A stretch of DNA of 64,000 bases from an archaeon (GCA_024274875.1 JAJSAH010000020.1:3897-67896), one strand, 5' to 3'. Counted from the first letter of the stretch, positions 17,466-63,119 are shown. A program made the numbers and translations. Notes: generated by a model from the letters alone, not told the origin.

Positions 17466-18878
17466 TTAGTTTTTCTTGCGAAGCAGGAATGCCAACAACG
17501 GCGGGGAGAGTAAAGTGGTCAAAATCACCATAACTACGATTATGGAAAACAGCTGGCTGTTGATTACACCTAAATTTTTGCCGATCATCGCGAAAATAAG
17601 GCCTACTTCGCCGCGTGGCACCATGCCTACGCCAACCATAAGCTTATCTACGCCTTTGCTCGCCGCTATGCCAGCAACCACTTTGCCTATGAAAGCAACA
17701 GCAGTTATCGCAAGAGCGAGCATCAATATCTGCGTATCAAATAATGTTTGCAGCTCAACGCTCATCCCAGTAACTACAAAGAACACCGGCACAAGAAAAT
17801 AACTCACAGGTTCAATTAAATCCTCTATATGTTTTTCGGAATGTTTCTCAAGCACCCTGCTAATCTTTTCTCTTGTGCTCTGGCTAGCTGACTTTATTGC
17901 ACCCTTCACATCATCAACAAACGCTGGGTTCTTGAAAAACTTGAAGTGCACTGGATCCAAAATCAGCCCTATTGCAAATGCGCCAACTATGGGCGCCAAC
18001 CCAATCATTTGCGCAAGGTATGCAAAAATGAGGCAAAACGCGATCGCAACAGTGAATTTCATAGGTATGCCTGCATGTATTTGCGAGAATGCTTTGTTAA
18101 AGAACGGTGCGAAATACTGGCCAAGCGCAATTGAACCTCCAAGGAAAAGCACGGCTTTAAGCACTATGAAACCTATGTCTGCAAATCCAACTGCGCCAGT
18201 GGTAACGATTGCTGAAACAACAGCAAGTATTATCAGTCCCATCACATCATCTATAACTGCTGCGCCCAAGATTGTCTGCGCTTCGGGAGTTTTTAGTTTT
18301 CCAAGGTCTCTGAACACCCGTGCAGTGATTCCCACTGATGTTGCAGTCAGCGCGGCGCCCAAGAACAAGTATGCATTATCAGAAAGCCCAGGAAACACTG
18401 CTGGACCAACAACATATGTTCCAAGCACAAACGGAGCAATCACTCCTATGAGAGCAACTAAAAATGCGCTTACGCCAACCTTTTTCATTTCGTGAATGTT
18501 CGATTCGAGACCTATTTGAAACAGAAGAATAACAACGCCCAGTTCAGAGAGAAACAGTATGATGCTGTCAGTTTTTATCGGCTCAAAAAATGTAATGCCA
18601 AAAAGCACCAAGTTTCCTAAAATCAAACCTATAACAAGCTCTCCGAGAACTGTGGGTTGGCCAAAACGTTCAACGAATCCTGCAATTTTTGCAGCAATGA
18701 GTATGACTGCAATCCATAAGAAAGTCAATGCAGCGCCAGACCCATGGCCTTCCACATCCTGTTCGCTAGTGTTGCCGTGTTCAGCAGAAAATGCAAGCGA
18801 ACAGAGCAAAAGAATTGCCAATACTCCAAACAATTTGCTCATGCAACCACTCCTTTCAAAGATGCGGTATTTCTGCAA
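17466..18878 (-). CDS. Cation:proton antiporter (CPA2, Na+/H+ exchanger family)
   Basis: Signal peptide plus about 12 TM; GELVIGLILGNLV...LSELGVVILLFQIGLES. Confidence 0.8.
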   Translation of the reverse strand: MQKYRIFERSGCMSKLFGVLAILLLCSLAFSAEHGNTSEQDVEGHGSGAALTFLWIAVILIAAKIAGFVERFGQPTVLGELVIGLILGNLVLFGITFFEPIKTDSIILFLSELGVVILLFQIGLESNIHEMKKVGVSAFLVALIGVIAPFVLGTYVVGPAVFPGLSDNAYLFLGAALTATSVGITARVFRDLGKLKTPEAQTILGAAVIDDVMGLIILAVVSAIVTTGAVGFADIGFIVLKAVLFLGGSIALGQYFAPFFNKAFSQIHAGIPMKFTVAIAFCLIFAYLAQMIGLAPIVGAFAIGLILDPVHFKFFKNPAFVDDVKGAIKSASQSTREKISRVLEKHSEKHIEDLIEPVSYFLVPVFFVVTGMSVELQTLFDTQILMLALAITAVAFIGKVVAGIAASKGVDKLMVGVGMVPRGEVGLIFAMIGKNLGVINSQLFSIIVVMVILTTLLSPPLLAFLLRKKN

Positions 18879-18925
18879 GGGAAAATATATTAAGATAACT
18901 AAGTGAATACTCTATTGCATTGAAC

Positions 18926-19175
18926 GGGCCCGTGGCTCAACTTGGATAGAGCGGCTGGCTTCGGACTCAGGGATGAAACCAGCAGGTTGCGGGTTCAAAA
19001 CGAGGGCGCTTCCGCCCCTCGTGCTCCCAGGTAATTTCGCTAACGCGAAATGAAAAAGGGAAACTAACGAGGGCGCTTCCGCCCCTCGTGCTCCCAGGTA
19101 ATTTCGCTAACGCGAAATGAAATAGGGAAACTAACGAGGGCGCTTCCGCCCCTCATGAAAATCCCGTCGGGCCCG
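18926..19175 (+). tRNA. tRNA-Arg(UCG) with two putative introns: 13 nt at 37/38 and about 162 nt inside the T-loop
   Basis: Hand-folded: acceptor GGGCCCG/CGGGCCC (18926-32 / 19168-74), U8, D-arm GCTC/GAGC with GG loop, anticodon stem GCTGG/CCAGC, loop CU-UCG-G [13-nt insert] A, T-stem GCGGG (18989-93) / CCCGU (19163-67), T-loop starts TTCAAAA; 3' partner only found after the 162-nt insert. Confidence 0.55.
19001..19155. repeat. 67-bp tandem repeat, 2 full + 1 partial copies (GC-rich, two hairpins per unit), inside the tRNA T-loop insert
   Basis: Units 19001-19067 and 19068-19134 identical except A/T at one position; third copy diverges after cgagggcgcttccgcccctc; hairpins GAGGGCG-cttc-CGCCCCTC and ATTTCGC-taac-GCGAAAT. 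Confidence 0.85.
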
Positions 19176-19241
19176 TTCCTTATTTGTTCGCGATTCCGCA
19201 AATATTTATATAATAACCTTTCCTAAAATCTATGTGGTTTT

Positions 19242-19811
19242 ATGAATGAAACCAAAAAACTTATAGAACGAAATGGTGTTAAGCTATTTTTGAAGAAAAT
19301 TGCCGGATCATGCGCTCCAACAATTGTTTCAAATCTTGTGAAACCAATAAGCGATGAAGATTTAGCAGAAATGTGCGGCATGCGTTCTGCAGATGTGAGA
19401 ATGATTCTCAACAAACTGCATTATGTTGGGCTTATTGATTACAACAGATCAAAGGATAATGAGAGCGGATGGTATTACTATTCTTGGTTCGTGAGACCAG
19501 ATAAACTGCTTGAAACATACATCAATAGTAAAAAACAAGACCTTGAAGATTTGGAGGAGATGCTGGAGAATAATGAGATTTACACCATGTACATATGCAG
19601 GAAATGCGATCAAACATACGATTTTGATAAAGCTGCTGAGCTCCTGTATCATTGTCCGCTATGCGAATCTATACTTGACAGGGGCACTACTGACGAGGAC
19701 ATACGCAAAATGAAAATGATTGCAAGAAGCATAAAAAAAGAGATAAGCGAAGTAATATCGGCATACGGAAAATTGTCTGAGATTAAGCACAAATCAATGA
19801 AAGTGCTGTAG
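19242..19811 (+). CDS. tfe: Transcription factor E (TFE, TFIIE-alpha homolog)
   Basis: N-terminal winged helix plus Zn ribbon CRKCDQTYDF...HCPLCES; TATA aaatatttatataat about 30 bp upstream. Confidence 0.8.
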   Translation: MNETKKLIERNGVKLFLKKIAGSCAPTIVSNLVKPISDEDLAEMCGMRSADVRMILNKLHYVGLIDYNRSKDNESGWYYYSWFVRPDKLLETYINSKKQDLEDLEEMLENNEIYTMYICRKCDQTYDFDKAAELLYHCPLCESILDRGTTDEDIRKMKMIARSIKKEISEVISAYGKLSEIKHKSMKVL

Positions 19812-26562: not shown

Positions 26563-29244
26563 TTATGGTTTGCTGTCCTCATAGTAAGAGCAAGAGACAG
26601 TTGTGACCTGAGCAACGGAAATGCTGTCCATATTCACTGCATCCAACGTTGATGATATTCCGCTGTCAGCATCAAGCAAGCTTATGGATTTAGATAGCAT
26701 CGAATTAAGCGCAAGATTTCCAAACGCATCTGCCTCCACCACGCAGTCATTTCTCGAGGATATGCAGTATCCATAAATCTCTTCAGATAATGTATCGCAC
26801 TCCTGCGCAACTTGGTCGTTCATTCCTTCATAAGCGCTTGAATATGCATCGAGAAGATATTCTGTGAACATATCTATGCACGCATCTTGTGTTTGCTGTT
26901 TCAAACTTTCGCATGACGATATGATTGACGCTTCGCTTGAGCATTCATCATAATTCTGCGCGCATATTAAGTTTGCGCATAATGAAATTACTTCGTTGGA
27001 GAACCAATCGCACCTGGATGCATACACTCCTTCCGGATGCATATCACCTTCCCAAAGACCTCTAAAAACATCTTTGCACGCATATTTATCCGCATCGTCC
27101 AGCAATTTGCTGCACAGCGAATCCGCAGTTGATGCGCATGAATAATAGTTGCCATAATAATTGCCCTCGCAGGCGCTATGCATGCATTCCATAGATAAGT
27201 TTAACTGCGCATGCCTGATTCCCTCATATAAAAATGATGTAATAACTGGATTCACCTTTGTCGAGCAATCTGGCTCCCTGCCAAGCAGAAAAATCTTTCG
27301 GATAGGGTTAGTTGCGCCATACGGCGCAGCAATCATGTATCTCCATTCCAAATATGAACATCCCGAATAATACTTCTCCTGGCCTTTTATGTAAGGAGAT
27401 CCTCTCATTACTAATACGCCTGTGCTTGCGACAGCAGGTTTTAATTCATCTGGCACTGCAATATCAGTAAGGTAATCTGCAAGTTCTTTGAATGCAATAT
27501 TAATCCTTTGCGAATATCCAAACCCTAGAAGATATATGTTAAATGTATCGCTCACATTTCCATACAACTGCGTTCCAAGCAAGTATTTTTGCTCTGCAGT
27601 CAGCAGTTTCGAATTAAAGCATAGCGATTCAGTAGTTATATCAACAACCTTGCAGGTTCCATCTTCGCACACATCCCTCATACACTGCCTATCAAAAGCA
27701 TCAACTTTCCCGTCTCCATTAAAATCAAACCTTCGGTCATACAATGAAGTGCACTGCGCATAACTCTCTGAAGAGCCAATATTTTCACCGCAATACGCAT
27801 CGAATATCTGCAAATCTGCAGTGTTTAGCAGCTCATCGCCATTCAAATCATACATTGCGCCATCATAATTGCACTCATAATAATTATCTACGCATATTTC
27901 AGGAGATTCTGTTTCAAAAACCCATGATGGAAGATCGGGATTATCCATCCAATCGTTAAATTGGTCTTCAGTGAATGTAGTCCATTCATTTTCGCCCTGC
28001 TCATCAGTTGATGTGCAGGCGATTGAGCCCGTGCTTAAAGGCAATACTCCAAATCCTCTGGCAATCAAGTTAGATAAATCAATGCATAAGAACTCAATGT
28101 CGCCTCTCTCAAACACTTCGCCCTCTTCACTGGCGCATGCGCCTGTTGATGCATCCCTGCATTCATACGGGCATGCGGGATCATAAACAAACCCTGGCGG
28201 GCAATCGCCGGCGCTCATGCAAGAGTATGTTTCAGAATCCGGCAAGGTCTTTGCGCACACTGAACCTGCGCACTCAACGCATGTCCCTGAAGCATCGCAC
28301 ACAGAGCACTGCTGGCCAACCAGTGATTCAGCGCATAGCATATTTTCGCATGATGCGCAATCCCCGCTGTTGACATCGCAACACCCAGAATCGCATCCTG
28401 CGCACGAATAATAACCTTCAGGGCACGCACCGATATCTGCGCATGTGTATGTTCCTAAAACGTTTGCGCACACTGAATCGCTGCACTCAACGCAGGTTCC
28501 GGAAGCATCGCACACAGAACACTGCTGGCCAATCTGTTCTGGGGAGCATTGCGCACCGCTGCACGATGCGCATTCTCCAGTTGCTGCTGCGCAGCATCCA
28601 GTATCGCAGTTATCGCATTGAACATAACCTGCGGGGCATGCGCCTTGCTGCTTGCACACATTCCTGTTGAGCAACGAATCATACGCGCAATAACTGTTAT
28701 CAGTGCAATCCGCGCAATTGCCTGATGAATCGCATATCTTGCATCTTTCTCCGGGTTCATCGCAAGGTTTATCGCTGCACCCTTCCAACAGTTCGCATCT
28801 GCCCTGAGCATTGCATGCATAATCCGAACAACAGGACTGCACATCCTGCGGATCGCACAGCAACCCTGCCTCGCAAGGCGCGCACTCTCCATCTGAACAC
28901 ACATATCCTGCGCAGCACGAGTCCTGCTCGCCGCACGATGCCGGATTTACACACGCTTGCTGAACCGCAAGACATTCCTGAGGGTTATCAACACTGCAAC
29001 ACTCGCCTTTCGGATTCATCACATATCCCTGCCCGCAAACGGAATAATCGCAGTAATCGATCTGATTGCCTAATGCATCAAGCACGCAGCACCCGCACGG
29101 ACTATTGCACTCAAATGCTTCATCAGGGCATTCCACTCCTCCATGTTGCGAGAACAACCATATTATAAGCAATCCAAGCACGACAAGCACTACTAATGCA
29201 ACGATTATTCTGTAATCTGCCTCGCCTCTATTTAACATTCCCAT
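26563..29244 (-). CDS. TM-anchored cysteine-rich surface protein with dockerin-like repeat pair (893 aa)
   Basis: N-term TM IVALVVLVVLGLLIIWLF; about 100 Cys in CxxC/CC modules in first 370 aa incl. a duplicated ~71-aa module; DLNGDELLNTADL...DFNGDGKVDAFD; last gene of operon. Confidence 0.7.
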   Translation of the reverse strand: MGMLNRGEADYRIIVALVVLVVLGLLIIWLFSQHGGVECPDEAFECNSPCGCCVLDALGNQIDYCDYSVCGQGYVMNPKGECCSVDNPQECLAVQQACVNPASCGEQDSCCAGYVCSDGECAPCEAGLLCDPQDVQSCCSDYACNAQGRCELLEGCSDKPCDEPGERCKICDSSGNCADCTDNSYCAYDSLLNRNVCKQQGACPAGYVQCDNCDTGCCAAATGECASCSGAQCSPEQIGQQCSVCDASGTCVECSDSVCANVLGTYTCADIGACPEGYYSCAGCDSGCCDVNSGDCASCENMLCAESLVGQQCSVCDASGTCVECAGSVCAKTLPDSETYSCMSAGDCPPGFVYDPACPYECRDASTGACASEEGEVFERGDIEFLCIDLSNLIARGFGVLPLSTGSIACTSTDEQGENEWTTFTEDQFNDWMDNPDLPSWVFETESPEICVDNYYECNYDGAMYDLNGDELLNTADLQIFDAYCGENIGSSESYAQCTSLYDRRFDFNGDGKVDAFDRQCMRDVCEDGTCKVVDITTESLCFNSKLLTAEQKYLLGTQLYGNVSDTFNIYLLGFGYSQRINIAFKELADYLTDIAVPDELKPAVASTGVLVMRGSPYIKGQEKYYSGCSYLEWRYMIAAPYGATNPIRKIFLLGREPDCSTKVNPVITSFLYEGIRHAQLNLSMECMHSACEGNYYGNYYSCASTADSLCSKLLDDADKYACKDVFRGLWEGDMHPEGVYASRCDWFSNEVISLCANLICAQNYDECSSEASIISSCESLKQQTQDACIDMFTEYLLDAYSSAYEGMNDQVAQECDTLSEEIYGYCISSRNDCVVEADAFGNLALNSMLSKSISLLDADSGISSTLDAVNMDSISVAQVTTVSCSYYEDSKP

Positions 29245-30872: not shown

Positions 30873-33800
30873 CTACTCGCATTTATATTTCTTATACAAC
30901 TCCATCAAACGCGATTGGTCGCACATGTTGCCCTGCTGACCTTTAGGAATATCACTTTCAGAGAATATCATCAACGCCTGGCCTTCTCCCATATAATAGT
31001 AATTGCCGCATAAGTCAAACCAATGGCGCGCATACGGATCCTTCCTAACTGCGTTCTCAAGTATAACATCTGGATTGTTAACATCTTCAAATGAATTTAA
31101 CAGGTCTGCAACATCACTGCCTTCTCCGAAACTTGGCAGAGATATTCCTGATGAAGACAGCAGGTCTGAGTAAGATGATATTGTGTTTTCAAACTGCCCA
31201 TAACTTGATGCAAGATCCCCCTCCGTTTCGAAAGATGTGCTTGCAGACGATCCAAACATCGCTCCAGCATACTGCGAAAATGTGGGCATTCCGGGATACA
31301 GTTGATCCGTATGCACTCCATACGTGAATGGATCTTCCCCGCTTGTTGATGAATCATAATACAATCCGTAATCTTCGCCAGCTATCCCTGTTGACAATGG
31401 TTTGCACGAAGTATCAACCAAACAATACTGCCCCATGCCTATTATGCCTGAGCCGATCATTATCACAAAATCCTGGCCGTATAGGTCTTTCAGCTGCTTA
31501 ATCATTTCAGTATTAGTCCAACACGATTCATCCTCGTTTGCATTTCTATTTATGCCAAACCCTATTATTATTGATGGCATTCCATGATTAACAAGAGCAT
31601 ACCGCGATACATTATACAATCCTTCCAAATATGAAGAAATGGTGCACTCGCCTCTGCGCCCTGCGCCAGGGTCATCAATCACGACAATATATCCAACCAT
31701 ATCTGCCCTTTGCAGACCTTCACCCATTTTTTCTTTCAGCTTTTCATCAATCGCATCAATAGCATTCTTCATATTCTCTATATCAGCATCGCTCAACCTA
31801 AGTTCATTTGATGACATATGTATGTAAAACGGAATTGTCGAAATGCACCTCTGCTTGTAAACAGTGTTCTCATAAGGGCACATATACTTATATTGCAAAC
31901 CGTAACTTTCGCAGAAATCCTTATCTAAATCAACGCAGATGCCAGTATCCTCATCGCAGCAGCATCCATCAATTGAAAAATCGCGGTAGTCATAAGTATG
32001 CTCGATGTTTTCAGTTTCGGATTGTTCAGTTGCGCCGCCGCAAACTTCATCATCAACAGATTTAACGCTTCTGCACACACCCTCAATCTCTGCAATCTGG
32101 TCAGCAAGCCCTGAATAGCCTTCATCGCCTACGCTCGCAAGCTGGCTTACATCAATAAGCTCAGTTGTGATAAAGGAAGGTGTTGCAGGAGCGCGCGGGT
32201 TTAGCAGCTGCGTCCTGTAAACTGGATTATCCGCGCCCATTTTAGGCTCTGCGATTGATTCAGCAATCTCAGCCAGTATTGATAATTGGCTCGGGCTGCC
32301 AATCTCATCAACTGTGGCATATAGTTGCCTCTGCGTCAACGAATCTATAATTGAATGGGTGCTAACACGCTGCGCATCTCTGCATACGCGATCTCCAGGG
32401 CTCAAAGATTGCTCATCTTCAAAACCAGTTAAATAGTCTTTGAATATCACCGTTCGATCTTCATCATCTCTGTTAGTTATGCATAAGCGCGAATCTTCGC
32501 TGTTAGGAATGCTTACTTTTCGCGGCTGGAATGAGCTTATGTCTAACTCAATCTGAACCTCAGGTTTATACACATTAACTGTAAAGCTTTTTCCAGAGTA
32601 AGGGTTGTAAAATAGATACCTGATTTTTTTGCCATCGTTCGGTATCTGCAGCTCATTCGCAGTATTGAATGTTTGATGCTCGCCAGGACTTAATTCAAGC
32701 CGTCTTATCTTATCGCCCATCTCCACAGATTTGGCAGACAAGTATGCATCCATATCGATCGGGCTTACTGAATACTGCACGGAATCAATTATGCAATCCT
32801 CATAATCTCCGCTGCATATTTTGGTCATCTTATTCTGTATAACTCCATATATATCATCTTCCGAACACGGATCGAGCGCGCCGTAATACCATACAACTGC
32901 ATCAGGCCCTGTGTTATTTATAACTATTTCATCGCCGAGAGCAACATCAAGCTCATCAACTGAAACTGCGGTAGACGGATCACCTGGATCGATCTGCTGC
33001 ATTACGGTTAAGTTGTATAGATACACATCTGCATACAATGCGTTCTCCATAATGTAATCCATGCTAAGCGAAGTATTTCTGTACATTCTCCCATCGTGCG
33101 CAAAAGATGGCACTTTGTACAGCAAATCGCCCAACTCAGTATCTGCAAGATTGCGAGCGAACGGCGATATATGAGAAAATATAATTTCCTTCCCATCTTG
33201 CACATCTAAAAGATTTGGGTAGTAAGGCGACTCATGCACTGAATACCATCCCTGCATATCTGGAGAGTATGAAACCGTGCCAAGCGGCGAGATAACCTCT
33301 TGAATTCCATCAAATGTGTCCTCTCCATAACAAACCGCTTTCAGCCCTGACTCGCTGTTAATTTGGAATACGTCTGAGATCGCATAACCCTGCCCAAACT
33401 CGCTCACTCCTTCCTGAACCTCGCCTGCCAAAAAGTACGTGCGCCCAGGATCAATGCTGTTCACCATGAACAGAATGCCGTTTGTAAGAGAAGATTCATC
33501 TATTCCTCCTCTTATTCTGTTTCCTGGATCTAAATCATTGTTTGGATTGCTGGATGTATCGCAGGGCGTTTCTGGGAATTCGTAATAATCATTATTTATG
33601 AACCTATACACTCCATTATACTGGCCCACTGGATTTGATAGGTCGAAAAAGCGCACTCTTCCGCTCTCATCTTCTGAATATGCAAATGAATCTATTCCGC
33701 CAATCACATTCGCCAAATACCAATTGTCATCTCTCGTGCCCTTCAACTGGGAATCTGCGCCCCAATCCTGCTTTGTAGCCCTGCACCAATACCAAAGCTC

Positions 33801-36800
33801 TGTGCCTTCCTCATCAACTGTGCTATCTTCTGCAGGATAACCGCACAGCGCCCCGTATTTGTTGTATATTATCAACGGCTTAGAAGCAGCAACTATTAAA
33901 TCTGACCACAAAGCATTCTTAACATCATTGCTTAACCTACCTGGGATAGGCTTTGCTTCAAAATCCCGCTTATCACCGCAAGTCCTGCCGCCATAATTTT
34001 GGTTATAATCTCCTACAAAATCGCCCGTAAGCAAAAACGGCTGGGTCGTAATCAGCCTGCCGCACGGCCTCTGTATAGAATAATCATCAACAAATTTGAG
34101 GGCCGCATCATTGATTATTTCGCCATTCGCCAATATGAGCGTTTCTGGAACAATTTCAACAAAGCGTGAATCTGCGATATCGATTTTTCCATAATCCTGC
34201 CTATGCGACAGATCATACGGGTTTGGCACACTGCCAGGCATAATCGAACCAAATCCATACTGCAATCTGCCCACAACCTGCGGAAGCAGCACATAATCAT
34301 TTCTCTTGCTGCGCAAATACTCATATTTGCCAACGCCCCCAGCAAACGCGTCTCCTCCAAGCTCAGGCACTCCAATAATATGAGGAAATGAGTATGCAAA
34401 TTCTTCAGGATACACTGTGTTGTTGAACGGAACTATGAACCCAATCTTTTCTCCGATAGTATTTACATAACCGCACCCTGATTTCACCCAACCTGGCCTT
34501 TCCTCGCCGGGATTCTCGTTGTGGTACCACTTATCATACCACATGCTTGGGAATACATTAACACCCTTAACAACAAACAACGATCCTTTCCAATTCTTCA
34601 GCATGCTTTCACTGAATGCGCCTCCCGAATCGCTGTTGCTTAATATCCACGAACGGCCTGGCGCATACCTCCTGAGCAGTACTGAATAAGAATCTGAATA
34701 AACATCTCCTCCCAAGTCAACATATGTAAATCTCATTATCTTGTCGGATGTCTCTAACGCAATAGGAGTGAATATTCTGTACTCCCTTACTGCAAAGGTA
34801 TCCTTCATCCCTGTGATATACCCAGGAGTTAACTCAATTGTTCGCTGTTCAAGCTTAGATGTATATGTGTTTGGGATTATCCTATGCGTGCTTTTCAGCA
34901 CAAGAGACCCTACTCCATTTTCATCTGTATCTTGACTCCTGCCCAAAGATAATTTAATATCATCATATCCCATGTTCGGCAGCAGGGTTATATCAGTAAC
35001 TTTGGCTGCGCCGCCAACATACGGATCATGATTTGATAACGCATCTATATCGCTTGCCGATAAAGAATATGCAGTCATTTTCTGCGGGCTCCAAAACTGC
35101 TGAAGATCTGCTGTTGCGGGAGAGCCGTCATCAACTAACATGCAGTAAGAGTTTGCGCTGACATCGCTCGGCCTAAGCATTACTGCTCTGGGATCCTCTG
35201 CAAGATTGTGAAGCCTAACGAGATAATTGTCCGTTCCATGACTGTCCATTCTGTACGCATCATAAGAAACTTTCAATTCGTGAGTAACCGCGGCTTTCTT
35301 TAAATTGAACTGCTTTGACACTGTTCCGCTGCTCACGCTGAAAGTTATATCTTCATCAGGCATTTCAAAACTCCATCCATTCAACGAAGGCGAATATGCG
35401 CCAGCTTCAGGAGGAGCAGATACATCATCTCTTGAAATTCCATCTGCAAGCGTCACATTGACCTTGCTGCCTTCTGCGATTGAATAATTCTCAGGAATCG
35501 AAGGGTCAACCATATTAACATCAGTATCGCCAATTCTGGAATACACAAATACAGGCAATGCGTTATCATACGCGAGCATAGAACGCGCCTGCATAATCTC
35601 TGTCTTGCTCGGAACGCCGGACAACATTTGAACGCCAAACCCTAATGTGCTGCTTGAACCTACCCTTCCCAACGCAGATGCAGAACCTCCTTCAACATCG
35701 CCGCGTATCACTAACATATTTTTGGGAATATTGAACTGCTGCGCATCTTCATCATAATAACTTAGAGCAATGCCTCCTATCCTGCGCACAACAAAAACAT
35801 TAGCGCCAGGACGCAAAACTATTGAATCTCCACTGATCATGCGCCGCGCATTAATGCCAACCTCGAGATTTACAAAACCTGATTTCATATCATCCTCCTT
35901 GTACTGCACATTAAGCGCGCGCATCTTGTAATCTCCAAGCTGATATTCATACACTACCTGCTCGTTCGCAGGCGCTGTGATTGAGCGTTCTCCGTTTGAT
36001 GAATAAACTTTAATAGATATATCATAATCCGCATTGTTGCGTATCACGACATCCGGCACAGACAAATCTAACCTTGCCATGCTGAACCCTGTCCCATTTG
36101 AGATAGATAAATCCTCATACACTTTGTAATTAATATCATCAAGATTAACTACTTTTACATCAGGGAATTGCGAGAACAGATCTAAATTGAGCGGACCTTC
36201 AAACGCAGATGCGTAATCTGGAAACGCAACTTCAGCATATCCAGGCACGGAATTGCCGTTTACTATATATAATATGTTCTTGTCCCCTACCGCAACAAGA
36301 GCGTACAACCCAGTATCAGCATTCCTGAACATGTGCAATCCATCTGAATTCATATCATAGCATCTTTTCTGGCCTTTGGAAATCAATTCGCCTGACTGCG
36401 CAGCGCCGTTATCCCATTCCAAAGAAGACGAATCTGAAACTAATGTTGGCCCAATTATCCTAACATCAGAATCTACAGCATTTATGCATACCTTTCCGCC
36501 TTGAGCGACCCTTCCATCAGTAGGAACAAATGCAGTTGAATACGCATCTATGTTAAGAACATCGCCCCCAGTAGTTGAGATGTAAAACTTTGCGCCGGAC
36601 AATGTATCAACCAATTCATAGTTTGCTTCATTCTCAGACAAACTATAATCGCAGTAATCCTGCAACGGAGGCAACATAAATGAACCTGAATGCCCTTCAT
36701 CGCTCGAATACTCAACCTCTCTCTCTTCTCCAACAGGGTTTGAGATGCATATGAGGTCATCCTTTTTTGCGATAGATGAATACGGGGAATAATCATAATC

Positions 36801-39296
36801 ATTCACCCGAATGTTTGATTGGACATCCGATGGGAACACAACAACATACGCTTTGTTTCCAGCAGGATACTCTTTGTCTGAAATCCTGTAAATGCCGGGC
36901 TCTTTTATATCAAAACAGCATTCAAGACCAAAATATGATGATTTTGCCTGCACAGGCAGGTATGAATTCGGTTCATACAACGCCTTCTTTTCAAGCACAA
37001 GCGTTTTCTTTCCGCTGGGAGCTTCATTGCGCACGCACAACTTTGAGCCAAAAGGAATGGAGATTGCAACTGGAGCAAACAACGGCTCGTTGCTTCCCTG
37101 CACAGTTATAGTATCACCTTCAGTGTAAACTACATAACTGAAATCTTCGCTGCCTATGGTTGCAGTATACTCACCCGGGCCAGGCGCATACAGCAAGCGG
37201 ACTTTGTCATGCTCTACAACACGCATCACTATGCGCAATGACGAATCGCCTGCATCAAAAGAATCAGTCATTTCATCCTCTTGAGACCCGCTCCCTTCTA
37301 AATATACTGAACCATCCTCATTAACGCCAAAAGTTATTCCTTCGCCTAAATCCACTGAACTGCCCCTGCTCATCTCAGATATATCAAGATCGGCGCCTCC
37401 ATAAGATGCGCCAAAATAACTGCCTTCATTAATGGAGAAACTTGGACCCTGCAACTCTCCAGTGAACACTCCTGAAGCGTCATAATCTGCAGATGCAAAC
37501 ACTGCATCCAATTTAACAACGCCTTTGTAATAGAACTCAGGATTGCCTGCATTGTCAAGCCGCATCTCATTAAAATCAGTTATGGTTAGGTCTTCAGGAG
37601 TTATCACGCTAACTATGGCAAATGCATGCTCATTATCATCTACACCTATCTTTGTGGTTCCCAGAGTGAAATTTGTGCCCGAACCTGTTGGGAAACAGGT
37701 GCCTTTTCCTGCTTCAAGATATTTCAGAAGCGTCCTTGCCCCGCCATTTCCAATTAAATGCAATGTGTGATCCTTGCCTCCAACGTTGTCAAAGCATACC
37801 TCACCACCTTCAAACACAGTTGTGGTGCTTGGAGAGAATGGCAATAATCCTGCGCTTATTTCAATGTCCGCAGGTTTTGATGGCTTGCATAGTTTTTTAG
37901 CAAGCTCGTAATCATTAAAAGAGGGTCCCTGGCCAAGCATGAATATAGGTATTTCTTGGTTCTCGCTTGTCAGAACTTCCTTATACAATCCAGATGAGAA
38001 ATTATGCACTCCATAAACATACCCGCCCTGCGAAGAAGTATCAGATGTCTTCTTGCAGTATGTGTAATAATACTCATCATTTGAATTCGGCCGAGTGCAT
38101 TTGTATGTAGAATACACTGCAATATCGCATCTGCACTTGCAGATGAAATATCTCTGCTCGTCTTCTCCAGAGAATTCATCTTTGCCGCAAGTGTACACAT
38201 TCTTATAATACGGACCCAATGCATCCATCACCTCAATGCGCACATACCTGCCTTTTCCTATCCCTGCCCTGTCTATTTCAACGCATGGGTTTAAGCCATT
38301 GCATTTATTGAACTCTAAATCGGAATATGAGAACCCGCGCGCAGTAACGCCTGCATCAGATTTGCTGAAATCCTCTATGTCATCATTCGCATGCTCGCGC
38401 GAACACCTGTTGCACTCTTCACCTTTATCAGGGTTTTCCTTCGCTTCGCTGCATATATCTTCGCATCCTTTCACATATGTATCTGAACTTTCTTCAGATG
38501 AAGAATCAAGATACTCCTGAGCCAATTCTTCAAGCAACCTGTAATCATCTCTCAAGTTATCTATTCTCTTTGAATCAGGAGGATAAGCTGATGTGTCAAG
38601 AATAGGGTTGTATTCGAACCCTTTGGCATTGTATGGATACTGAATCGGCATGTTGGCTTGGCAGCCCATAGGGATTTTATAGGATAGTATGCCCCCCTCA
38701 TCACAGGTATAGCAACCTTCCTGCAAACTCGTGCAATTCAACGCATATTCAGAATTCCTAGCTGAGTCAGATACTGCGTTGCATCCCATATAATATGTTT
38801 CATCGCTTTGCTCATCCAACTTGAACTTCCCTATTGATCCCAAACCATCATAAAAAGATCCAGGATGGAGCGATTCGGAAGGGTATGCAATTCCAAACCC
38901 ATACCCGCGATCTCTCTTACCGCAGACCATTCCAGTGATGTAATACCCTACTTTTTTCTCAGTATCGAATGAACAATCATATTTAAGGCACAGCGTATCT
39001 GGAATGCTTAATACCTCGCATCTGTCACCTCTGTCTTCATAATACACAGTCCCCCGCGGGTCATCATTTGCCCCTTTATACGCAGGAGAACACTCCCACT
39101 TAACGTTCTTTTTCTCAACTTCTTTAACAACTGCCATGCAGCTTGCTTGTTTGCATTCGATGGGGGATTCAGGCACAGTCGGTTCGGCAGATTCCACAGT
39201 AATTTTCGTTGGGAGCTCTTGCCGAACATCATATTTAAGGCACCCTGCAAAGAACAATGCAACCAACAATAACAGCGCAGCGGTTAGTTTATACAC
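30873..39296 (-). CDS. Giant surface protein, 2807 aa, lipoprotein-type signal peptide
   Basis: MYKLTAALLLLVALFFAGC (lipobox-like), uninterrupted 8.4-kb ORF, many N-x-S/T sequons, Cys pairs, acidic Ser/Asp-rich tail; no TM beyond signal. Confidence 0.8.
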   Translation of the reverse strand: MYKLTAALLLLVALFFAGCLKYDVRQELPTKITVESAEPTVPESPIECKQASCMAVVKEVEKKNVKWECSPAYKGANDDPRGTVYYEDRGDRCEVLSIPDTLCLKYDCSFDTEKKVGYYITGMVCGKRDRGYGFGIAYPSESLHPGSFYDGLGSIGKFKLDEQSDETYYMGCNAVSDSARNSEYALNCTSLQEGCYTCDEGGILSYKIPMGCQANMPIQYPYNAKGFEYNPILDTSAYPPDSKRIDNLRDDYRLLEELAQEYLDSSSEESSDTYVKGCEDICSEAKENPDKGEECNRCSREHANDDIEDFSKSDAGVTARGFSYSDLEFNKCNGLNPCVEIDRAGIGKGRYVRIEVMDALGPYYKNVYTCGKDEFSGEDEQRYFICKCRCDIAVYSTYKCTRPNSNDEYYYTYCKKTSDTSSQGGYVYGVHNFSSGLYKEVLTSENQEIPIFMLGQGPSFNDYELAKKLCKPSKPADIEISAGLLPFSPSTTTVFEGGEVCFDNVGGKDHTLHLIGNGGARTLLKYLEAGKGTCFPTGSGTNFTLGTTKIGVDDNEHAFAIVSVITPEDLTITDFNEMRLDNAGNPEFYYKGVVKLDAVFASADYDASGVFTGELQGPSFSINEGSYFGASYGGADLDISEMSRGSSVDLGEGITFGVNEDGSVYLEGSGSQEDEMTDSFDAGDSSLRIVMRVVEHDKVRLLYAPGPGEYTATIGSEDFSYVVYTEGDTITVQGSNEPLFAPVAISIPFGSKLCVRNEAPSGKKTLVLEKKALYEPNSYLPVQAKSSYFGLECCFDIKEPGIYRISDKEYPAGNKAYVVVFPSDVQSNIRVNDYDYSPYSSIAKKDDLICISNPVGEEREVEYSSDEGHSGSFMLPPLQDYCDYSLSENEANYELVDTLSGAKFYISTTGGDVLNIDAYSTAFVPTDGRVAQGGKVCINAVDSDVRIIGPTLVSDSSSLEWDNGAAQSGELISKGQKRCYDMNSDGLHMFRNADTGLYALVAVGDKNILYIVNGNSVPGYAEVAFPDYASAFEGPLNLDLFSQFPDVKVVNLDDINYKVYEDLSISNGTGFSMARLDLSVPDVVIRNNADYDISIKVYSSNGERSITAPANEQVVYEYQLGDYKMRALNVQYKEDDMKSGFVNLEVGINARRMISGDSIVLRPGANVFVVRRIGGIALSYYDEDAQQFNIPKNMLVIRGDVEGGSASALGRVGSSSTLGFGVQMLSGVPSKTEIMQARSMLAYDNALPVFVYSRIGDTDVNMVDPSIPENYSIAEGSKVNVTLADGISRDDVSAPPEAGAYSPSLNGWSFEMPDEDITFSVSSGTVSKQFNLKKAAVTHELKVSYDAYRMDSHGTDNYLVRLHNLAEDPRAVMLRPSDVSANSYCMLVDDGSPATADLQQFWSPQKMTAYSLSASDIDALSNHDPYVGGAAKVTDITLLPNMGYDDIKLSLGRSQDTDENGVGSLVLKSTHRIIPNTYTSKLEQRTIELTPGYITGMKDTFAVREYRIFTPIALETSDKIMRFTYVDLGGDVYSDSYSVLLRRYAPGRSWILSNSDSGGAFSESMLKNWKGSLFVVKGVNVFPSMWYDKWYHNENPGEERPGWVKSGCGYVNTIGEKIGFIVPFNNTVYPEEFAYSFPHIIGVPELGGDAFAGGVGKYEYLRSKRNDYVLLPQVVGRLQYGFGSIMPGSVPNPYDLSHRQDYGKIDIADSRFVEIVPETLILANGEIINDAALKFVDDYSIQRPCGRLITTQPFLLTGDFVGDYNQNYGGRTCGDKRDFEAKPIPGRLSNDVKNALWSDLIVAASKPLIIYNKYGALCGYPAEDSTVDEEGTELWYWCRATKQDWGADSQLKGTRDDNWYLANVIGGIDSFAYSEDESGRVRFFDLSNPVGQYNGVYRFINNDYYEFPETPCDTSSNPNNDLDPGNRIRGGIDESSLTNGILFMVNSIDPGRTYFLAGEVQEGVSEFGQGYAISDVFQINSESGLKAVCYGEDTFDGIQEVISPLGTVSYSPDMQGWYSVHESPYYPNLLDVQDGKEIIFSHISPFARNLADTELGDLLYKVPSFAHDGRMYRNTSLSMDYIMENALYADVYLYNLTVMQQIDPGDPSTAVSVDELDVALGDEIVINNTGPDAVVWYYGALDPCSEDDIYGVIQNKMTKICSGDYEDCIIDSVQYSVSPIDMDAYLSAKSVEMGDKIRRLELSPGEHQTFNTANELQIPNDGKKIRYLFYNPYSGKSFTVNVYKPEVQIELDISSFQPRKVSIPNSEDSRLCITNRDDEDRTVIFKDYLTGFEDEQSLSPGDRVCRDAQRVSTHSIIDSLTQRQLYATVDEIGSPSQLSILAEIAESIAEPKMGADNPVYRTQLLNPRAPATPSFITTELIDVSQLASVGDEGYSGLADQIAEIEGVCRSVKSVDDEVCGGATEQSETENIEHTYDYRDFSIDGCCCDEDTGICVDLDKDFCESYGLQYKYMCPYENTVYKQRCISTIPFYIHMSSNELRLSDADIENMKNAIDAIDEKLKEKMGEGLQRADMVGYIVVIDDPGAGRRGECTISSYLEGLYNVSRYALVNHGMPSIIIGFGINRNANEDESCWTNTEMIKQLKDLYGQDFVIMIGSGIIGMGQYCLVDTSCKPLSTGIAGEDYGLYYDSSTSGEDPFTYGVHTDQLYPGMPTFSQYAGAMFGSSASTSFETEGDLASSYGQFENTISSYSDLLSSSGISLPSFGEGSDVADLLNSFEDVNNPDVILENAVRKDPYARHWFDLCGNYYYMGEGQALMIFSESDIPKGQQGNMCDQSRLMELYKKYKCE

Positions 39297-50622: not shown

Positions 50623-51147
50623 ATGGGTATCACAATTCTAAGACTCGGGCATCGCATAATCAGGGATCAAAGAATCACGACGCATGTTGCGCTAACAGCA
50701 AGAGCTTTTGGAGCGGACAGAGTAATAATTAGCGGTGAAAAGGATGATGGGGTTGTGCATAGCGTTGCAGGAGTTTGCGAAGAATTTGGGGGAGATTTTG
50801 CCATTGAATACGCAAAAGACTGGAGAGCAATCATCAAGGAGTGGAAAGGTTTGGTTGTTCATCTAACTATGTATGGAATGCAATTTAACGAAGTTATTCA
50901 AGAAATTCGAGCCCATGAAAAGCATGGCGAAATTCTTGCGGTTGTGGGGGGCTCCAAAGTGCCGCCAGAAGTGTATGATTGGGCGGATTATAATGTTGCA
51001 ATCGGCAATCAACCGCACTCTGAAGTTGCCGCAGTTGCAGTGTTCTTAAGGGAGATCATCGATGAAGAAGAGGTTGAGCGTAAGTTCAAGGACGCAAAAA
51101 AGACAATCGTGCCATCTCCAAAGGGAAAAAAAGTAGTGGAACATTAA
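50623..51147 (+). CDS. trm56: tRNA (cytidine56-2'-O)-methyltransferase aTrm56 (SPOUT)
   Basis: ILRLGHRIIRDQRITTHVALTARAFGADRV typical aTrm56 N-terminus. Confidence 0.85.
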   Translation: MGITILRLGHRIIRDQRITTHVALTARAFGADRVIISGEKDDGVVHSVAGVCEEFGGDFAIEYAKDWRAIIKEWKGLVVHLTMYGMQFNEVIQEIRAHEKHGEILAVVGGSKVPPEVYDWADYNVAIGNQPHSEVAAVAVFLREIIDEEEVERKFKDAKKTIVPSPKGKKVVEH

Positions 51148-59920: not shown

Positions 59921-60643
59921 ATGAAAACGAAAATTATTGTTGCGGTGATCCTTGGATTGTTTGTTCTTTTCTCTGGATGCATCAACCTCAATCCAGAGCA
60001 GGTTAAAGATTAAATAAAGGATAATGTTGAAAATGCATCCGAACAGGCGCAGGATATTGTTGAGAATGCTGGCGAGACATTATCGCAAACGACATTGGAA
60101 ACTGCAATGTCAAGCGGCGTGGCGTATGAATGCACAGCAATATCTGAAAATGAAGGGCAGACGTATACAGCTCATTATTGGGTTCACGGAGATAAGTTCA
60201 AAATAGAAATGAATCCATCTAATGGCATAACCCTTACTGCAATCGTAAAAGACGATAAGATATACACTAAATCAATATATGGTAATGCAATGCAGTATAA
60301 CGGGGTTAGATGCGACTGGATAATGATGGAAAAACAGCATGAGCAAACTTACGATGGCGCGCATGAATATGATGCGAATATAGATAATTTTGAAGTAATG
60401 AGCAGTGCGCAATCCGCAAAAGTAAATGTAGAATGTCATCCATCAACTTTTGGCGATGATGTGTTCAACCCTGAGGGCAATGTATGCGATCTCAGCGAGA
60501 TGATGGGACAACTTAATAATGGGAACATGCAAGAACCGCCTCAGCAAAGCTATGAAAATAACATAGGACCTAAAGAATGCAACGGGCTCAGCGGCCAGGA
60601 AATGATGGATTGCTTGCAAAATTATATGGACCAAATGGAATAA
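59921..60643 (+). pseudogene. Lipoprotein paralog interrupted by in-frame TAA (60011-60013); could also be two ORFs
   Basis: MKTKIIVAVILGLFVLFSGC...EQVKD-TAA-IKDNVENASEQ... continues in same frame into ORF 60095..60643. Confidence 0.45.
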
Positions 60644-60671
60644 TTTTTCTATTTTTAATTTTGCAAGTGAT

Positions 60672-61682
60672 TTAGGGGTTTGCTGAATTGTACGCTTCAT
60701 CATATTCTTCTTTCGACACGAACTTTGCTCTGACATAAAATCTTCCCGCATACCACTTCCCACCAGCGCAATTTCTGTGGTCTATCCAATAATTATCATT
60801 GCTAGCCGCTGCTGAACCTGCCTGGCATGCAATGATATATTGGTCTCCAATGATTTGGGATCTCCCAGGCAAGGGAAGATCTATTACGCGCAGCTTATTT
60901 ATGTTTGTAATCAGACCGTAATATACATATGATGCATCAGCACTTATTCTGCACAAGTCATCAAAAGCATTTAAATCGCCATTCATCGCGAATAGTTCGC
61001 TATTTCCTATTACATGGGAAGGTATGTTGTGATCCATGCATATCTGATGCACTGCCCTAAACACATCACATCCTGAAATGTTGTTCTCTTCACATTCTTC
61101 AAAAGAATCCCTTGCGTTCGCAAATTCCGTGTATGTGCTTGAATCCCCTGGCACCCAGTTTTCAGGAGCATACGGATCGTAGTTATTTTCTTCTTCATAA
61201 TGCATCCTTTCATTGGATTCAACCGCGATGCCATCATTCTCGCCAACAAGTCTTTCATCCTCAAATAATGAATCCCTTTCAAATCCCTGCTCGCTTTGAT
61301 CGAGCAGTTCAATACCTAAATCACTCCTCAATTCGAAGTTCTCAAGTTGCTGTTCTTTTCCATCGCGCAAATCAACGGAATCAACTCGCGCATCTGGCTC
61401 GAATGCATCTGCGTCCCTATTCTCGCTTATTTTCTCAAATCTTCGGTCCTGCTCTTGGTCAGCATGCTCCAACTCAATGCGCAGACCATCATTAAAACTA
61501 CTGCGATGCGATGGGACAACTGAGCCGGAATCGCATGCGCTAAAATTACATATGCCTGCCAAGCTCATCGCAATGCTTATTGCATACCTCTTGGGCTTCT
61601 TTAAGATTGTTTCGCATAATAAACGCGCTTTCGCGAATCTCTTTTCTTTTGGAACAATAATAGGCTGGCTAAAAATATGCAT
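60672..61682 (-). CDS. Secreted/lipo-anchored hypothetical protein, paralog of 61784..62767
   Basis: Signal AISIAMSLAGICNFSAC; shared C-terminal blocks with neighbour. Confidence 0.45.
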   Translation of the reverse strand: MHIFSQPIIVPKEKRFAKARLLCETILKKPKRYAISIAMSLAGICNFSACDSGSVVPSHRSSFNDGLRIELEHADQEQDRRFEKISENRDADAFEPDARVDSVDLRDGKEQQLENFELRSDLGIELLDQSEQGFERDSLFEDERLVGENDGIAVESNERMHYEEENNYDPYAPENWVPGDSSTYTEFANARDSFEECEENNISGCDVFRAVHQICMDHNIPSHVIGNSELFAMNGDLNAFDDLCRISADASYVYYGLITNINKLRVIDLPLPGRSQIIGDQYIIACQAGSAAASNDNYWIDHRNCAGGKWYAGRFYVRAKFVSKEEYDEAYNSANP

Positions 61683-61783
61683 ATGTCAACACCAAATATA
61701 ATTTCTCATCAGGCACTTATAAACATTTCTTTAATTCCTTTATGCTACTGCGGAACGCATGAAAAATAAAAAATTAATAGATG

Positions 61784-62767
61784 TTAGTACCTCGCCTTGA
61801 ACTCCTCAAACAGTGCTTTGTCAATAACTGCAATGTTTGCATAATATTTTCCTTCAAAAACATCTGGGTTGAAATGCCCTTCTCCAATCGAACCAATCTG
61901 GCAACCAACTGCATAATGATCATTGTTATCGCTGTATGTTCCAGGGATAGGGAAATTCTTCGTATCATACATTCCTAATGGTTTGCTTATTTTTGTCTTT
62001 ATAACATATCTGCCACTGCTTAAATACAAATTACCCATAGTCACAGTCGGAGCAGACCCTTCACCGACAAGGAGTTCAATCGCAGATCCTCTGGTTATTG
62101 CCACGAATTTCATATCGTACCCTTCTACTCCATAGGTCTCAATACCGTCAAAGTTCTCTGTGCATATTGCATCAATCATCTTCTTAAAATCGCAATATGA
62201 GCCAGAATCGCACTCTGCCGCCCTGTCGCCTGCATTAGCCATATCTATATAATCATCAACCAAATCGGGGCGAAGCCAATTCTTAGGGTTATAGTGCTCA
62301 TCAGTGTACTGCTTTTCAGATGATTCATTCTCATAACTCTCCTGGCCATTTTCACTGAACGTGCCTGCATCGCTCTCATAACTCTCTGAGACCTCTGCGT
62401 CGCGACTGCCACTTGCACTGCCATTGCCACCGCAGGATACTGAGAAAGTTACGCCTGCCGCCAACGACAACACAGCAAGCATTCTTGCTGACCTGCCAGC
62501 TGTGCGCTTCCACGCATCCTTAAACCTGCTGAACAGCGTGCGCCTGCGCACTGAATGCGTATCTTCCTCTATACGCTTAATATTAGCAGCCATACTTTTC
62601 ATAATCACACCATACTTATAAGCATTGGTTATATTTATATAATTTGCGATTCTGTGCATGCTAAGAACATCACATTTGAACAATTTGCATGAAGAAAGCA
62701 AATAATTAGCCAACTGGAACCCGCGCCTTAACTTCAAGAAAATGCCTGCCTGAAACATTGGTCGCAT
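61784..62767 (-). CDS. Secreted/lipo-anchored hypothetical protein, paralog of 60672..61682
   Basis: Signal MLAVLSLAAGVTFSVSC; Ser/Glu-rich linker then globular domain. Confidence 0.45.
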   Translation of the reverse strand: MRPMFQAGIFLKLRRGFQLANYLLSSCKLFKCDVLSMHRIANYINITNAYKYGVIMKSMAANIKRIEEDTHSVRRRTLFSRFKDAWKRTAGRSARMLAVLSLAAGVTFSVSCGGNGSASGSRDAEVSESYESDAGTFSENGQESYENESSEKQYTDEHYNPKNWLRPDLVDDYIDMANAGDRAAECDSGSYCDFKKMIDAICTENFDGIETYGVEGYDMKFVAITRGSAIELLVGEGSAPTVTMGNLYLSSGRYVIKTKISKPLGMYDTKNFPIPGTYSDNNDHYAVGCQIGSIGEGHFNPDVFEGKYYANIAVIDKALFEEFKARY

Positions 62768-63119
62768 TAACTGAATGCGGTGTTAGGCGGGCTGTTTTAA
62801 CAATTGCATAGCCGTCTTCAGTTTCTTTAAGAGTATGAAGCAGTATTGGAAAATGAACGTTGAACATCCAAAATGATTCATCAACCGGCTTATCATACAC
62901 AAATAAAATTCCCTCATCATCTTCAACATCCGCAGGATCCCTGAACATATAGCCTATGCTCCGCGATATTGCATTATCAGCGATGTATGCTTTAATTGTC
63001 CTGTTGCCAACTTTAATGTATTCATGCTTAGAGTACGGGCTCGAAATAAGCAACAGAGGCAACATTAAGATGAATAACAACGAAACAACAAAACTTTTGC
63101 CAAACAGAGAGACAATCAT
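62706..63119 (-). CDS. DUF192 (COG1430) family protein with N-terminal TM
   Basis: FWMFNVHFPILLHTL resembles DUF192 FWMKNT...PLD core. Confidence 0.55.
   Translation of the reverse strand: MIVSLFGKSFVVSLLFILMLPLLLISSPYSKHEYIKVGNRTIKAYIADNAISRSIGYMFRDPADVEDDEGILFVYDKPVDESFWMFNVHFPILLHTLKETEDGYAIVKTARLTPHSVNATNVSGRHFLEVKARVPVG

Follow-up and report, generated by a model that had tools for sequence, protein, structure and literature searches.

The 64,000-nt stretch analyzed here (GCA_024274875.1 JAJSAH010000020.1:3897-67896; hereafter the window) comes from an archaeon and holds, at positions 18926-19175 on the plus strand, a tRNA-Arg(UCG) gene interrupted by two inserts, with a predicted spliced product of 75 nt. 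A perfect 7-bp acceptor stem is formed by GGGCCCG (18926-18932) and CGGGCCC (19168-19174), strands that lie 235 nt apart, and the remaining stems can be read from the sequence: GCUC/GAGC in the D arm, GCUGG/CCAGC in the anticodon arm and GCGGG/CCCGU in the T arm. Characteristic bases are present (U8, G18G19, A20, U33, C35, G36, G37, U54U55C56 and A58). The anticodon U34 C35 G36 sits in the loop CUUCGGA, and the D-loop AACUUGGAUA places A20, an arginine identity base, after G18G19. Once 18965-18977 and a 162-nt block are deleted, ARAGORN calls Arg(tcg) on the resulting 75-mer, in agreement with the original prediction, made from the sequence by eye, that the gene is an arginine tRNA with anticodon UCG whose acceptor, D and anticodon stems become perfect when two inserts are removed. 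In the raw 64-kb window no tRNA is called by ARAGORN (with or without its intron option) or by Rfam at the gathering threshold, so that the proposed check with ARAGORN came out negative for the unspliced locus and positive for the 75-mer spliced in silico. On the unspliced locus, the Rfam tRNA model aligns only to 18926-18997, the 5′ two thirds, with 22.5 bits. In the unconstrained minimum free energy (MFE) fold of the 250-nt precursor, all four cloverleaf stems are formed (-110.6 kcal/mol; z = -4.7, with 0 of 200 shuffles equally stable). The gene is the sole tRNA in the window; intergenic GC peaks considered as further hidden tRNAs turned out to be short coding stretches. Archaeal CGA codons are read by a UCG anticodon, and CGA is used 45 times in the 58 open reading frames (ORFs) of the window, so a UCG decoder is needed.

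The gene is preceded by a TATA-like, A/T-rich box, AAAATATATTAA (18882-18893, plus strand), a putative archaeal promoter judging from its sequence and its distance of ~40 nt from position 1; a comparable box, CATATATTAAAAA, lies at a similar distance upstream of the orthologous gene in L024, the closest relative found. Exon 1 (18926-18964; positions 1-37) comprises the 5′ strand of the acceptor stem, the D arm with A20, the 5′ strand of the anticodon stem and C32 U33 U34 C35 G36 G37, and matches L024 at 38 of 39 nucleotides. It is followed by intron 1 (ACUCAGGGAUGAA; 18965-18977), a 13-nt insert at the canonical 37/38 site. Exon 2 (18978-18999; positions 38-59) contains A38, the 3′ strand of the anticodon stem, the variable loop AGGUU, GCGGG and U54 U55 C56 A57 A58 A59, and leads into intron 2 (19000-19161), which interrupts the T-loop at 59/60 with 162 nt made up of 2.4 tandem copies of a 67-nt unit. 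Exon 3 (19162-19175) supplies U60, CCCGU, CGGGCCC and the discriminator G73; like exon 2 it is identical to L024, and no CCA is encoded at the 3′ end of the gene. All of these features lie on the plus strand, as does the T-rich tract TTCCTTATTTGTT (19176-19188) directly downstream, a putative termination signal by its composition; runs of four to five Ts occur at the same place downstream of the orthologs. The run of A residues in the T-loop would allow the cut to slide from 56/57 to 60/61 by sequence alone, with an intron length of 162 nt regardless. We place it at 59/60 because the T-loop in L024 reads UUCAAAU and because the bulge-helix-bulge geometry described below fits there. The 13-nt insert at 37/38 was predicted correctly; for the T-loop insert the predicted length of about 162 nt stands, and the boundary given (60/61, 19001-19162) lies one base too far to the right.

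Tandem Repeats Finder reports 18999-19154 as a repeat with period 67, 2.3 copies and 98% matches, and its 21-nt hairpin occurs three times, with 0.00 occurrences expected. Each full unit consists of two hairpins separated by a short linker. Unit 1 (19000-19066, plus strand, as are its parts) opens with hairpin A (19000-19022), ACGAGGG-C-GC-UUCC-GC-CCCUCGU, in which 7 bp are followed by a bulged C, 2 bp and a UUCC tetraloop. Then come the 11-nt linker GCUCCCAGGUA (19023-19033), hairpin B (19034-19051), AUUUCGC-UAAC-GCGAAAU, and an A-rich tail (19052-19066). Unit 2 (19067-19133, plus strand) differs from unit 1 by a single A-to-T substitution in the tail (GAAATAGGG), and partial unit 3 (19134-19161, plus strand) retains hairpin A only, with a G-to-A change at the last stem position (one mismatch). 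The array therefore has the layout A-X-A-X-A′, with the last hairpin A running into UGAAAA.

A regular array of this kind could be a CRISPR-like mini-array, or another known repeat system, that lies in the gene by chance. Rfam gives weak minus-strand matches to CRISPR-DR34 at the 67-nt period (23.5 and 20.2 bits; E = 0.03 and 0.25), which fall below the gathering score of 35 and in which the 16 matched nucleotides resemble a bacterial type II repeat by coincidence. The would-be spacers are identical, and the whole 67-nt period is repeated at 98% identity, which makes this a plain tandem repeat; no cas genes occur among the scanned ORFs of the window. A CRISPR array was rejected on these grounds, and we give this explanation virtually no chance. 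A self-splicing intron was likewise dismissed: no Rfam intron family was matched in 18800-19300 at E values up to 10, and 162 nt is too short for a group I or group II intron. Finally, intron 2 was considered as a C/D or H/ACA guide RNA and rejected, as it contains no C (RUGAUGA), D (CUGA) or ACA boxes, has no Rfam match above noise, and its linker finds no complementary sequence in the L008 rRNA or the window.

Archaeal tRNA introns that are spliced by protein enzymes have bulge-helix-bulge motifs at their borders. The geometry used here, in which each strand consists of a 4-nt helix, a 3-nt bulge that is cut after its second base, and a flanking helix, was derived from introns at the canonical 37/38 site together with the established A-I pair rule. 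At intron 2, the central 4-bp helix is formed by U54 U55 C56 A57 of the exon (18994-18997, plus strand) and UGAA of the intron (19156-19159, plus strand). The 3′ bulge spans 19160-19162 (A A↓U60, the arrow marking the cut) and the 5′ bulge 18998-19000 (A58 A59↓A). The T stem flanks this helix on one side; on the other, beyond a C19001·A19155 mismatch, GAGGG (19002-19006, plus strand) pairs with CCCUC (19150-19154). The result is a near-canonical bulge-helix-bulge, with two 3-nt bulges on opposite strands and a 4-bp helix between them. The central helix and the AAU 3′ bulge are already present in the unconstrained MFE fold, and forcing the long-range GAGGG/CCCUC helix costs ~1 kcal/mol relative to the MFE, after subtraction of the intron 1 term. 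It is the terminal UGAAAA of partial unit 3 that supplies the 3′ splice-site helix and bulge. The motif needs only the outer half-hairpins and this UGAAAA, which should leave copy number free to drift without harm to splicing, so that slippage or unequal recombination could change the number of units while the gene stays spliceable.

Comparison with related genomes supports this exon-intron structure. In L024 (TFE 89% identical, flanking DNA 72-75% identical), the same tRNA-Arg(TCG) gene lies between HerA and TFE and scores 54.2 bits in Rfam; its 37/38 intron measures 54 nt and forms a perfect central helix of 4 bp, and its T-loop (TTCAAAT) is uninterrupted. Removal of the two inserts from the window gene yields a canonical tRNA that matches the mature sequence in L024 at 74 of 75 positions, including all those across the T-loop junction. 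Since a tRNA with an uninterrupted T-loop is reproduced this closely, the locus is not a chance arrangement, and the exons, compared with flanks of 72-75% identity, appear to be under selection. The L024 intron (2833-2886) carries UGAUGA, an 11-nt spacer and CUGAUGA, resembling the C and D boxes of guide RNAs; in Rfam it gives only a weak snoZ40 match (14.9 bits).

In the more distant L020 (TFE 58% identical, gene order conserved), the orthologous tRNA-Arg (2156-2356) has introns of 92 nt at 37/38 and 35 nt in the T-loop and splices in silico to Arg(tcg); its acceptor stem contains an A3·C70 mismatch. At the start of two further contigs, L018 and L023, only 4 and 10 nt precede the sequence UGAAAA↓U CCCAY CGGGCCC G. 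This sequence corresponds to the 3′ end of a T-loop intron, so that the UGAA-AA↓U signature of intron 2 recurs in both. With introns in the same two places in L020 and these T-loop intron ends, the suggestion that the window holds an archaeal multi-intron tRNA gene is borne out. Across the orthologs intron contents are unrelated and lengths range from 13 to 162 nt, while the exons are conserved.

The 59/60 site is shared with other tRNAs of the lineage. A tRNA-Leu(CAA) gene in L001 and a tRNA-Ala gene (UGC, G3:U70) in L008 both have introns at 37/38 and 59/60 and are recognized by ARAGORN after splicing, and their T-loop introns end in UGAA-AU↓U and AGAA-AA↓U, respectively. The tRNA-Ala gene lies in the 16S-23S spacer of L008 (3340-3560, minus strand), with introns of ~120 nt (37/38) and ~57 nt (59/60); motifs of the CUUUCUUUGGG / CCAAAGAAAG type recur throughout these introns and the spacer. 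Because UUCA of the T-loop is universal, any insert at 59/60 that ends in UGAA-NN should be spliceable in any tRNA, which fits the similar 3′ ends seen in the Arg, Leu and Ala genes. We did not see a 59/60 central helix that uses the universal UUCA stated in the literature searched.

Taken together, the locus is very probably a functional Micrarchaeia tRNA-Arg(UCG) gene with two protein-spliced, bulge-helix-bulge introns, in which the content of intron 2 is best seen as tolerated repeat DNA that is probably mobile at the DNA level. In the pathway we propose, transcription from the A/T-rich box would yield a precursor of ~260 nt, and the archaeal splicing endonuclease (in this lineage, of the broad-specificity epsilon2 type) would cut at two sites. 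Intron 1 would be recognized via a relaxed bulge-helix-loop, and intron 2 through pairing of T-loop residues U54-A57 with the UGAA of the intron, the bulges AA↓A and AA↓U carrying the cuts. An RtcB-type ligase would then join the three exons into the 75-nt tRNA, and the introns would probably be circularized. The predicted exon junctions are CUUCGG↓ACCAGC and GGUUCAAA↓UCCCGU (here the arrow marks the joint), and the circular intron 2 would have the junction ...CAUGAAAA↓ACGAGGG.... The repeat DNA would thereby be housed in a part of the transcript that is discarded. The window also encodes aTrm56, which methylates C56 of the T-loop (50623-51147, plus strand); as C56 is buried in the central helix of the precursor, this methylation presumably follows splicing.

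Work on ARMAN-2, a member of the same lineage, provides experimental precedent for this pathway: disruption affects 56% of its tRNA genes, introns recur at 59/60, and its epsilon2 endonuclease cuts in vitro both a strict motif and a relaxed 13-nt intron at 59/60 (PMC3239211).

Several observations weigh against this reading. The original prediction had proposed to look for bulge-helix-bulge motifs at both junctions, and the outcome is divided: intron 2 has a near-canonical motif, but intron 1 has only a relaxed one of the hBH/BHL type. The central helix of intron 1 (C32:G, U33·U, U34:A, C35:G) has three of four pairs, disrupted by a U·U mismatch; AA↓A38 forms the 3′ bulge, and the 5′ site falls within a loop. 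In this canonical register the arm folds at -5.3 kcal/mol, compared with -11.1 kcal/mol for a competing fold, making it 5.8 kcal/mol less stable. The T-loop intron of L020 lies at 57/58 by sequence, lacks a UGAA partner and does not fit the 59/60 geometry. The closest relative, L024, has no T-loop intron at all, so the insertion in the window may be too recent for a loss of function to have left its mark on the exons, and a second, intact tRNA-Arg(UCG) gene may exist outside the 64-kb window. Finally, Pfam scans of 49 window ORFs turned up neither a splicing endonuclease nor RtcB; these scans did not take in three ORFs, one of 97 aa, one of 893 aa (26563-29244) and one of 2807 aa (30873-39296), or the four at 60095-63967. 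As to intron 1, relaxed motifs of its type are cut by the ARMAN-2 enzyme (PMC3239211).

The intact T-loop in L024, the rejection of the locus by standard tRNA finders, and the fact that other genomes have the module in non-intron sites and in reversed orientation, as expected of a mobile DNA element, would also suit a pseudogene. In that case a repeat that inserted and amplified in the T-loop would recently have inactivated this tRNA-Arg gene, the insert would stay unspliced, and tRNA-Arg(UCG) would come from another gene. Against this, the insert ends exactly in the UGAA AA required to pair with U54-A57 over 4 bp and to place a 3-nt bulge at each exon border. The exons differ from those of L024 by one substitution in 75 nt despite ~26% divergence of the flanks, T-loop introns with the same 3′ signature are found in the L018 and L023 orthologs and in other tRNAs of the lineage, and introns at 59/60 have been cleaved experimentally in ARMAN-2 (PMC3239211). 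A pseudogene is accordingly improbable, and we continue with the spliced, functional gene as the preferred explanation.

For an array of near-identical units, the assembly itself has to be considered, as tandem copies could have been created or miscounted by the assembler and the real intron could be shorter, with one unit or none. Contigs from five related assemblies (L003, L005, L006, L018 and L023) end within tRNA-linked arrays or T-loop introns, an indication that assemblers struggle here and a pattern that fits fragmentation induced by repeats or by population heterogeneity, and near-identical genomes differ in copy number. In the window, however, the copies are not identical (the A-to-T change in unit 2 and the G-to-A change in the last hairpin), which argues for distinct genomic copies, and the array lies well inside a long contig, between stretches of unique sequence. 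A single unit would still leave an intron with its splice motif. An artefact is therefore very improbable as an account of the locus.

Copy number varies among closely related strains. L001 and L002 have flanks that are 99.9-100% identical and differ by exactly one 80-nt unit. L004, L005 and L006 share the same TFE protein and are 99.7-99.8% identical downstream, but carry different arrays of a second repeat family next to a tRNA fragment; over 42-49 nt, the T-loop intron of the L008 tRNA-Ala matches this second family at 92-94% identity. Within one repeat unit of L005 (113-229), a 117-nt hairpin-rich insertion with the ends ACATGC...GCATGT is nested, which is present in neither L004 nor L006; it holds a hairpin, ATTTTCGC-TGT-GCGAAAAT, resembling hairpin B of the window unit. 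Upstream of TFE in these contigs (L004 1590-1904; L005 1-360; L006 1-300) lie, on the minus strand, the 3′ part of a tRNA-Val(TAC) that has an intron at 37/38 and, on the plus strand, an Arg-like 3′ half that runs from position 38 onwards, with the different tandem arrays between them. The 5′ parts of the two were looked for and not found; the locus may be a split tRNA, an integration remnant or a set of interleaved genes.

The window unit itself has relatives beside other tRNA genes. A scan of 185,579 species genomes with hairpin A gave one true match, in Candidatus Micrarchaeum sp. SulCav_AS07-7 (L008), next to six chance matches in high-GC bacteria. In L008, 34 of 34 nucleotides of hairpin A and linker are identical to the window unit, and the position of hairpin B is taken by another perfect hairpin, GUCCGC-UUCA-GCGGAC; this copy sits on the opposite strand from the rRNA operon, with 3 nt between it and the 5′ end of the tRNA-Ala gene. 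When 129 kb of Micrarchaeia DNA were searched with a descriptor of the hairpin A architecture, it turned up at just three places: the window, L008 and L001-L003. The L001-L003 copy belongs to a tandem unit of 80 nt that precedes tRNA-Leu. As in L008, it is on the opposite strand and separated by 3 nt from the tRNA 5′ end; the hairpin A-like element is followed by TACCCCTGATAG, a linker related to that of the window, and then by a hairpin of 7 bp. When aligned by hand with the structure as a guide, the window and L001 show ~3 compensatory pairs. MAFFT shifts the G/C runs by one base, out of register with the hairpins, and we therefore treat the covariation as suggestive only and abandoned a covariance model of the module. 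A metagenome scan with the hairpin-linker core returned a single match, a chance one in a bacterial coding region, and viral scans with three module cores returned chance matches only, all in Lys/Ala-rich coding sequence.

These relatives bear on what the module might do. The two-hairpin module could be a functional small RNA, or several cut from a tandem precursor, that tRNA splicing sets free and possibly circularizes, much like the C/D box RNA in the tRNA-Trp intron of Haloferax; this explanation is compatible with the favored one. Hairpin A and linker are 100% conserved between two genomes, with hairpin B keeping its shape as its sequence differs; in L001 the bulged C, 2-bp inner stem and tetraloop of hairpin A reappear, with altered bases in both strands; and the modules always occur in transcribed regions that are removed by tRNA processing. 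A function of the sense-strand RNA, however, predicts a fixed orientation with respect to the host transcript, and this orientation is opposite in L001 and L008 compared with the window. The module contains no C/D or H/ACA boxes and matches no Rfam family above noise, no sequence complementary to its linker occurs in the window or in the L008 rRNA covered (16S and part of 23S), and the closest relative, L024, does without it. We consider a small-RNA role unlikely, though less so than a pseudogene.

The favored explanation, a spliced gene whose intron holds tolerated repeat DNA, raises the question of what kind of repeat this is. Compared with a family of transposed introns, the picture in the sample of 129 kb is mixed: the two other tRNA-linked sites of the module, a 5′ leader and an rRNA spacer, are not introns and show the opposite orientation, and the second repeat family does link a T-loop intron (L008 tRNA-Ala) to the arrays of L004-L006. 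We tentatively entertain the possibility that the 67-nt unit belongs to an undescribed Micrarchaeia family of two-hairpin modules, represented by three or four lineages, that spreads at the DNA level, inserts at tRNA exon borders, survives only in parts of tRNA and rRNA transcripts that are processed away, and forms arrays that vary between strains. Members of such a family would combine hairpin A (a G/C clamp, a bulged C and a tetraloop), a conserved linker of 11-12 nt and a hairpin B of free sequence, and would have their homes in T-loop introns, 5′ leaders and operon spacers. Transposition of archaeal tRNA introns probably occurs at the DNA level according to reviews (PMC4090602), and the orientation data for the module agree with this.

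Several known systems resemble parts of this arrangement. The tRNA-Trp intron of Haloferax volcanii, ~100 nt at 37/38, is excised at a bulge-helix-bulge and released as a circle, and its C/D boxes guide methylation of its own tRNA. Intron 2 is likewise long, structured and flanked by a bulge-helix-bulge, but lacks C/D boxes and detectable target complementarity. Bacterial REP/BIME and MITE-type repeats are short hairpin modules of conserved structure that occur in either orientation and in tandem clusters, in the non-coding pockets of compact genomes. Here there is resemblance only, as the modules described above are tied to tRNA exon borders and come with no identified transposase, terminal inverted repeats or target-site duplications. 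In Thermoproteales, tRNA genes have up to three introns at non-canonical sites, and related introns in different tRNA genes have been read as evidence of DNA-level spread. This is mirrored by the kinship of the L008 T-loop intron with the L004-L006 units and by the recurrence of the window module beside tRNA-Ala and tRNA-Leu. Thermoproteales belong to another phylum and have another type of endonuclease, whereas in the sequences studied here the shared elements are not confined to introns but are also present in 5′ leaders and an rRNA spacer, can face either way and form arrays of variable copy number, features that we did not find described for Thermoproteales in the literature searched.

The closest parallel is ARMAN-2, which shares the lineage, the 59/60 site, strict as well as relaxed motifs, more than one intron per gene, and 13-nt introns; it differs in that the T-loop intron assayed there is 13 nt long (PMC3239211), compared with 162 nt of tandem repeats here, known from sequence alone. 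In the split tRNAs of Nanoarchaeum equitans and Caldivirga and the disrupted tRNAs of Caldiarchaeum subterraneum, breaks occur at sites that form a bulge-helix-bulge, intervening sequences are related to introns at the same position in relatives, and tRNA loci are heterogeneous at the population level (PMC4390854, PMC3293823). The window gene, by comparison, is contiguous and would be spliced in cis; only the locus in L004-L006 might represent a split gene or a remnant 3′ half.

The host is a Micrarchaeia (DPANN) archaeon, judging from TFE, the gene that follows the tRNA, whose homologs are labelled Candidatus Micrarchaeia, and the guess of a DPANN host in the original prediction was right. 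The window (~42% G+C, ~93% coding) is a core chromosomal stretch with a ribosomal-protein operon, SecY, HerA, TFE, SRP54, PCNA and aTrm56. Between HerA and the tRNA lies a Na+/H+ antiporter gene (17466-18878, minus strand) with its best homologs (65-70% identity) in Patescibacteria (candidate phyla radiation bacteria); it is absent from the syntenic L024 and L020, where HerA directly adjoins the tRNA, and by this distribution looks like a cross-domain gene insertion beside a tRNA gene. A search for orthologous loci via this antiporter failed, since its homologs are Patescibacteria. Further away, an 893-aa Cys-rich ORF (26563-29244, minus strand) contains a 213-nt tandem repeat (28250-28638; 1.8 copies, 75% matches) in a locally G+C-rich stretch, unrelated to the tRNA. 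A 21-kb block of large ORFs (29252-50227) has Pfam matches for none of the 10 ORFs scanned, the 2807-aa ORF (30873-39296) having been left out, and is followed by a small gene that matches a putative phage metallopeptidase (50206-50595). This block may be surface-protein or mobile DNA.

As a gene type, Micrarchaeia tRNA genes with introns at 37/38 and 59/60 are known. Novelty lies in how large the T-loop intron is and in its composition of tandem repeats, in its relationship to modules that adjoin further tRNAs elsewhere in the lineage and may face either way, and in the variation of array copy number from strain to strain. We found no paper on archaeal tRNA introns built from repeats in the literature searched, of which coverage is incomplete, and the early impression that a repeat-filled T-loop intron of this size is unusual stands. 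The fact that ARAGORN and Rfam miss the gene means that surveys of DPANN genomes will undercount tRNAs and may wrongly infer missing decoders. The coincidence of repeat arrays at tRNA loci with contig ends likewise matters for the assembly of such genomes. Four lineages with introns at the same two sites of one tRNA, unrelated intron contents, and a nearest relative without one of the introns form a series that is natural material for the study of gain, loss and turnover of enzyme-spliced introns. If the proposed module family is real, it would offer a testable route for tRNA intron gain and explain both the broken assemblies and the loci that escape tRNA finders; if it is also mobile, it would show that repeat DNA has a niche in a 93% coding genome, where it is made harmless by the RNA processing of the host.

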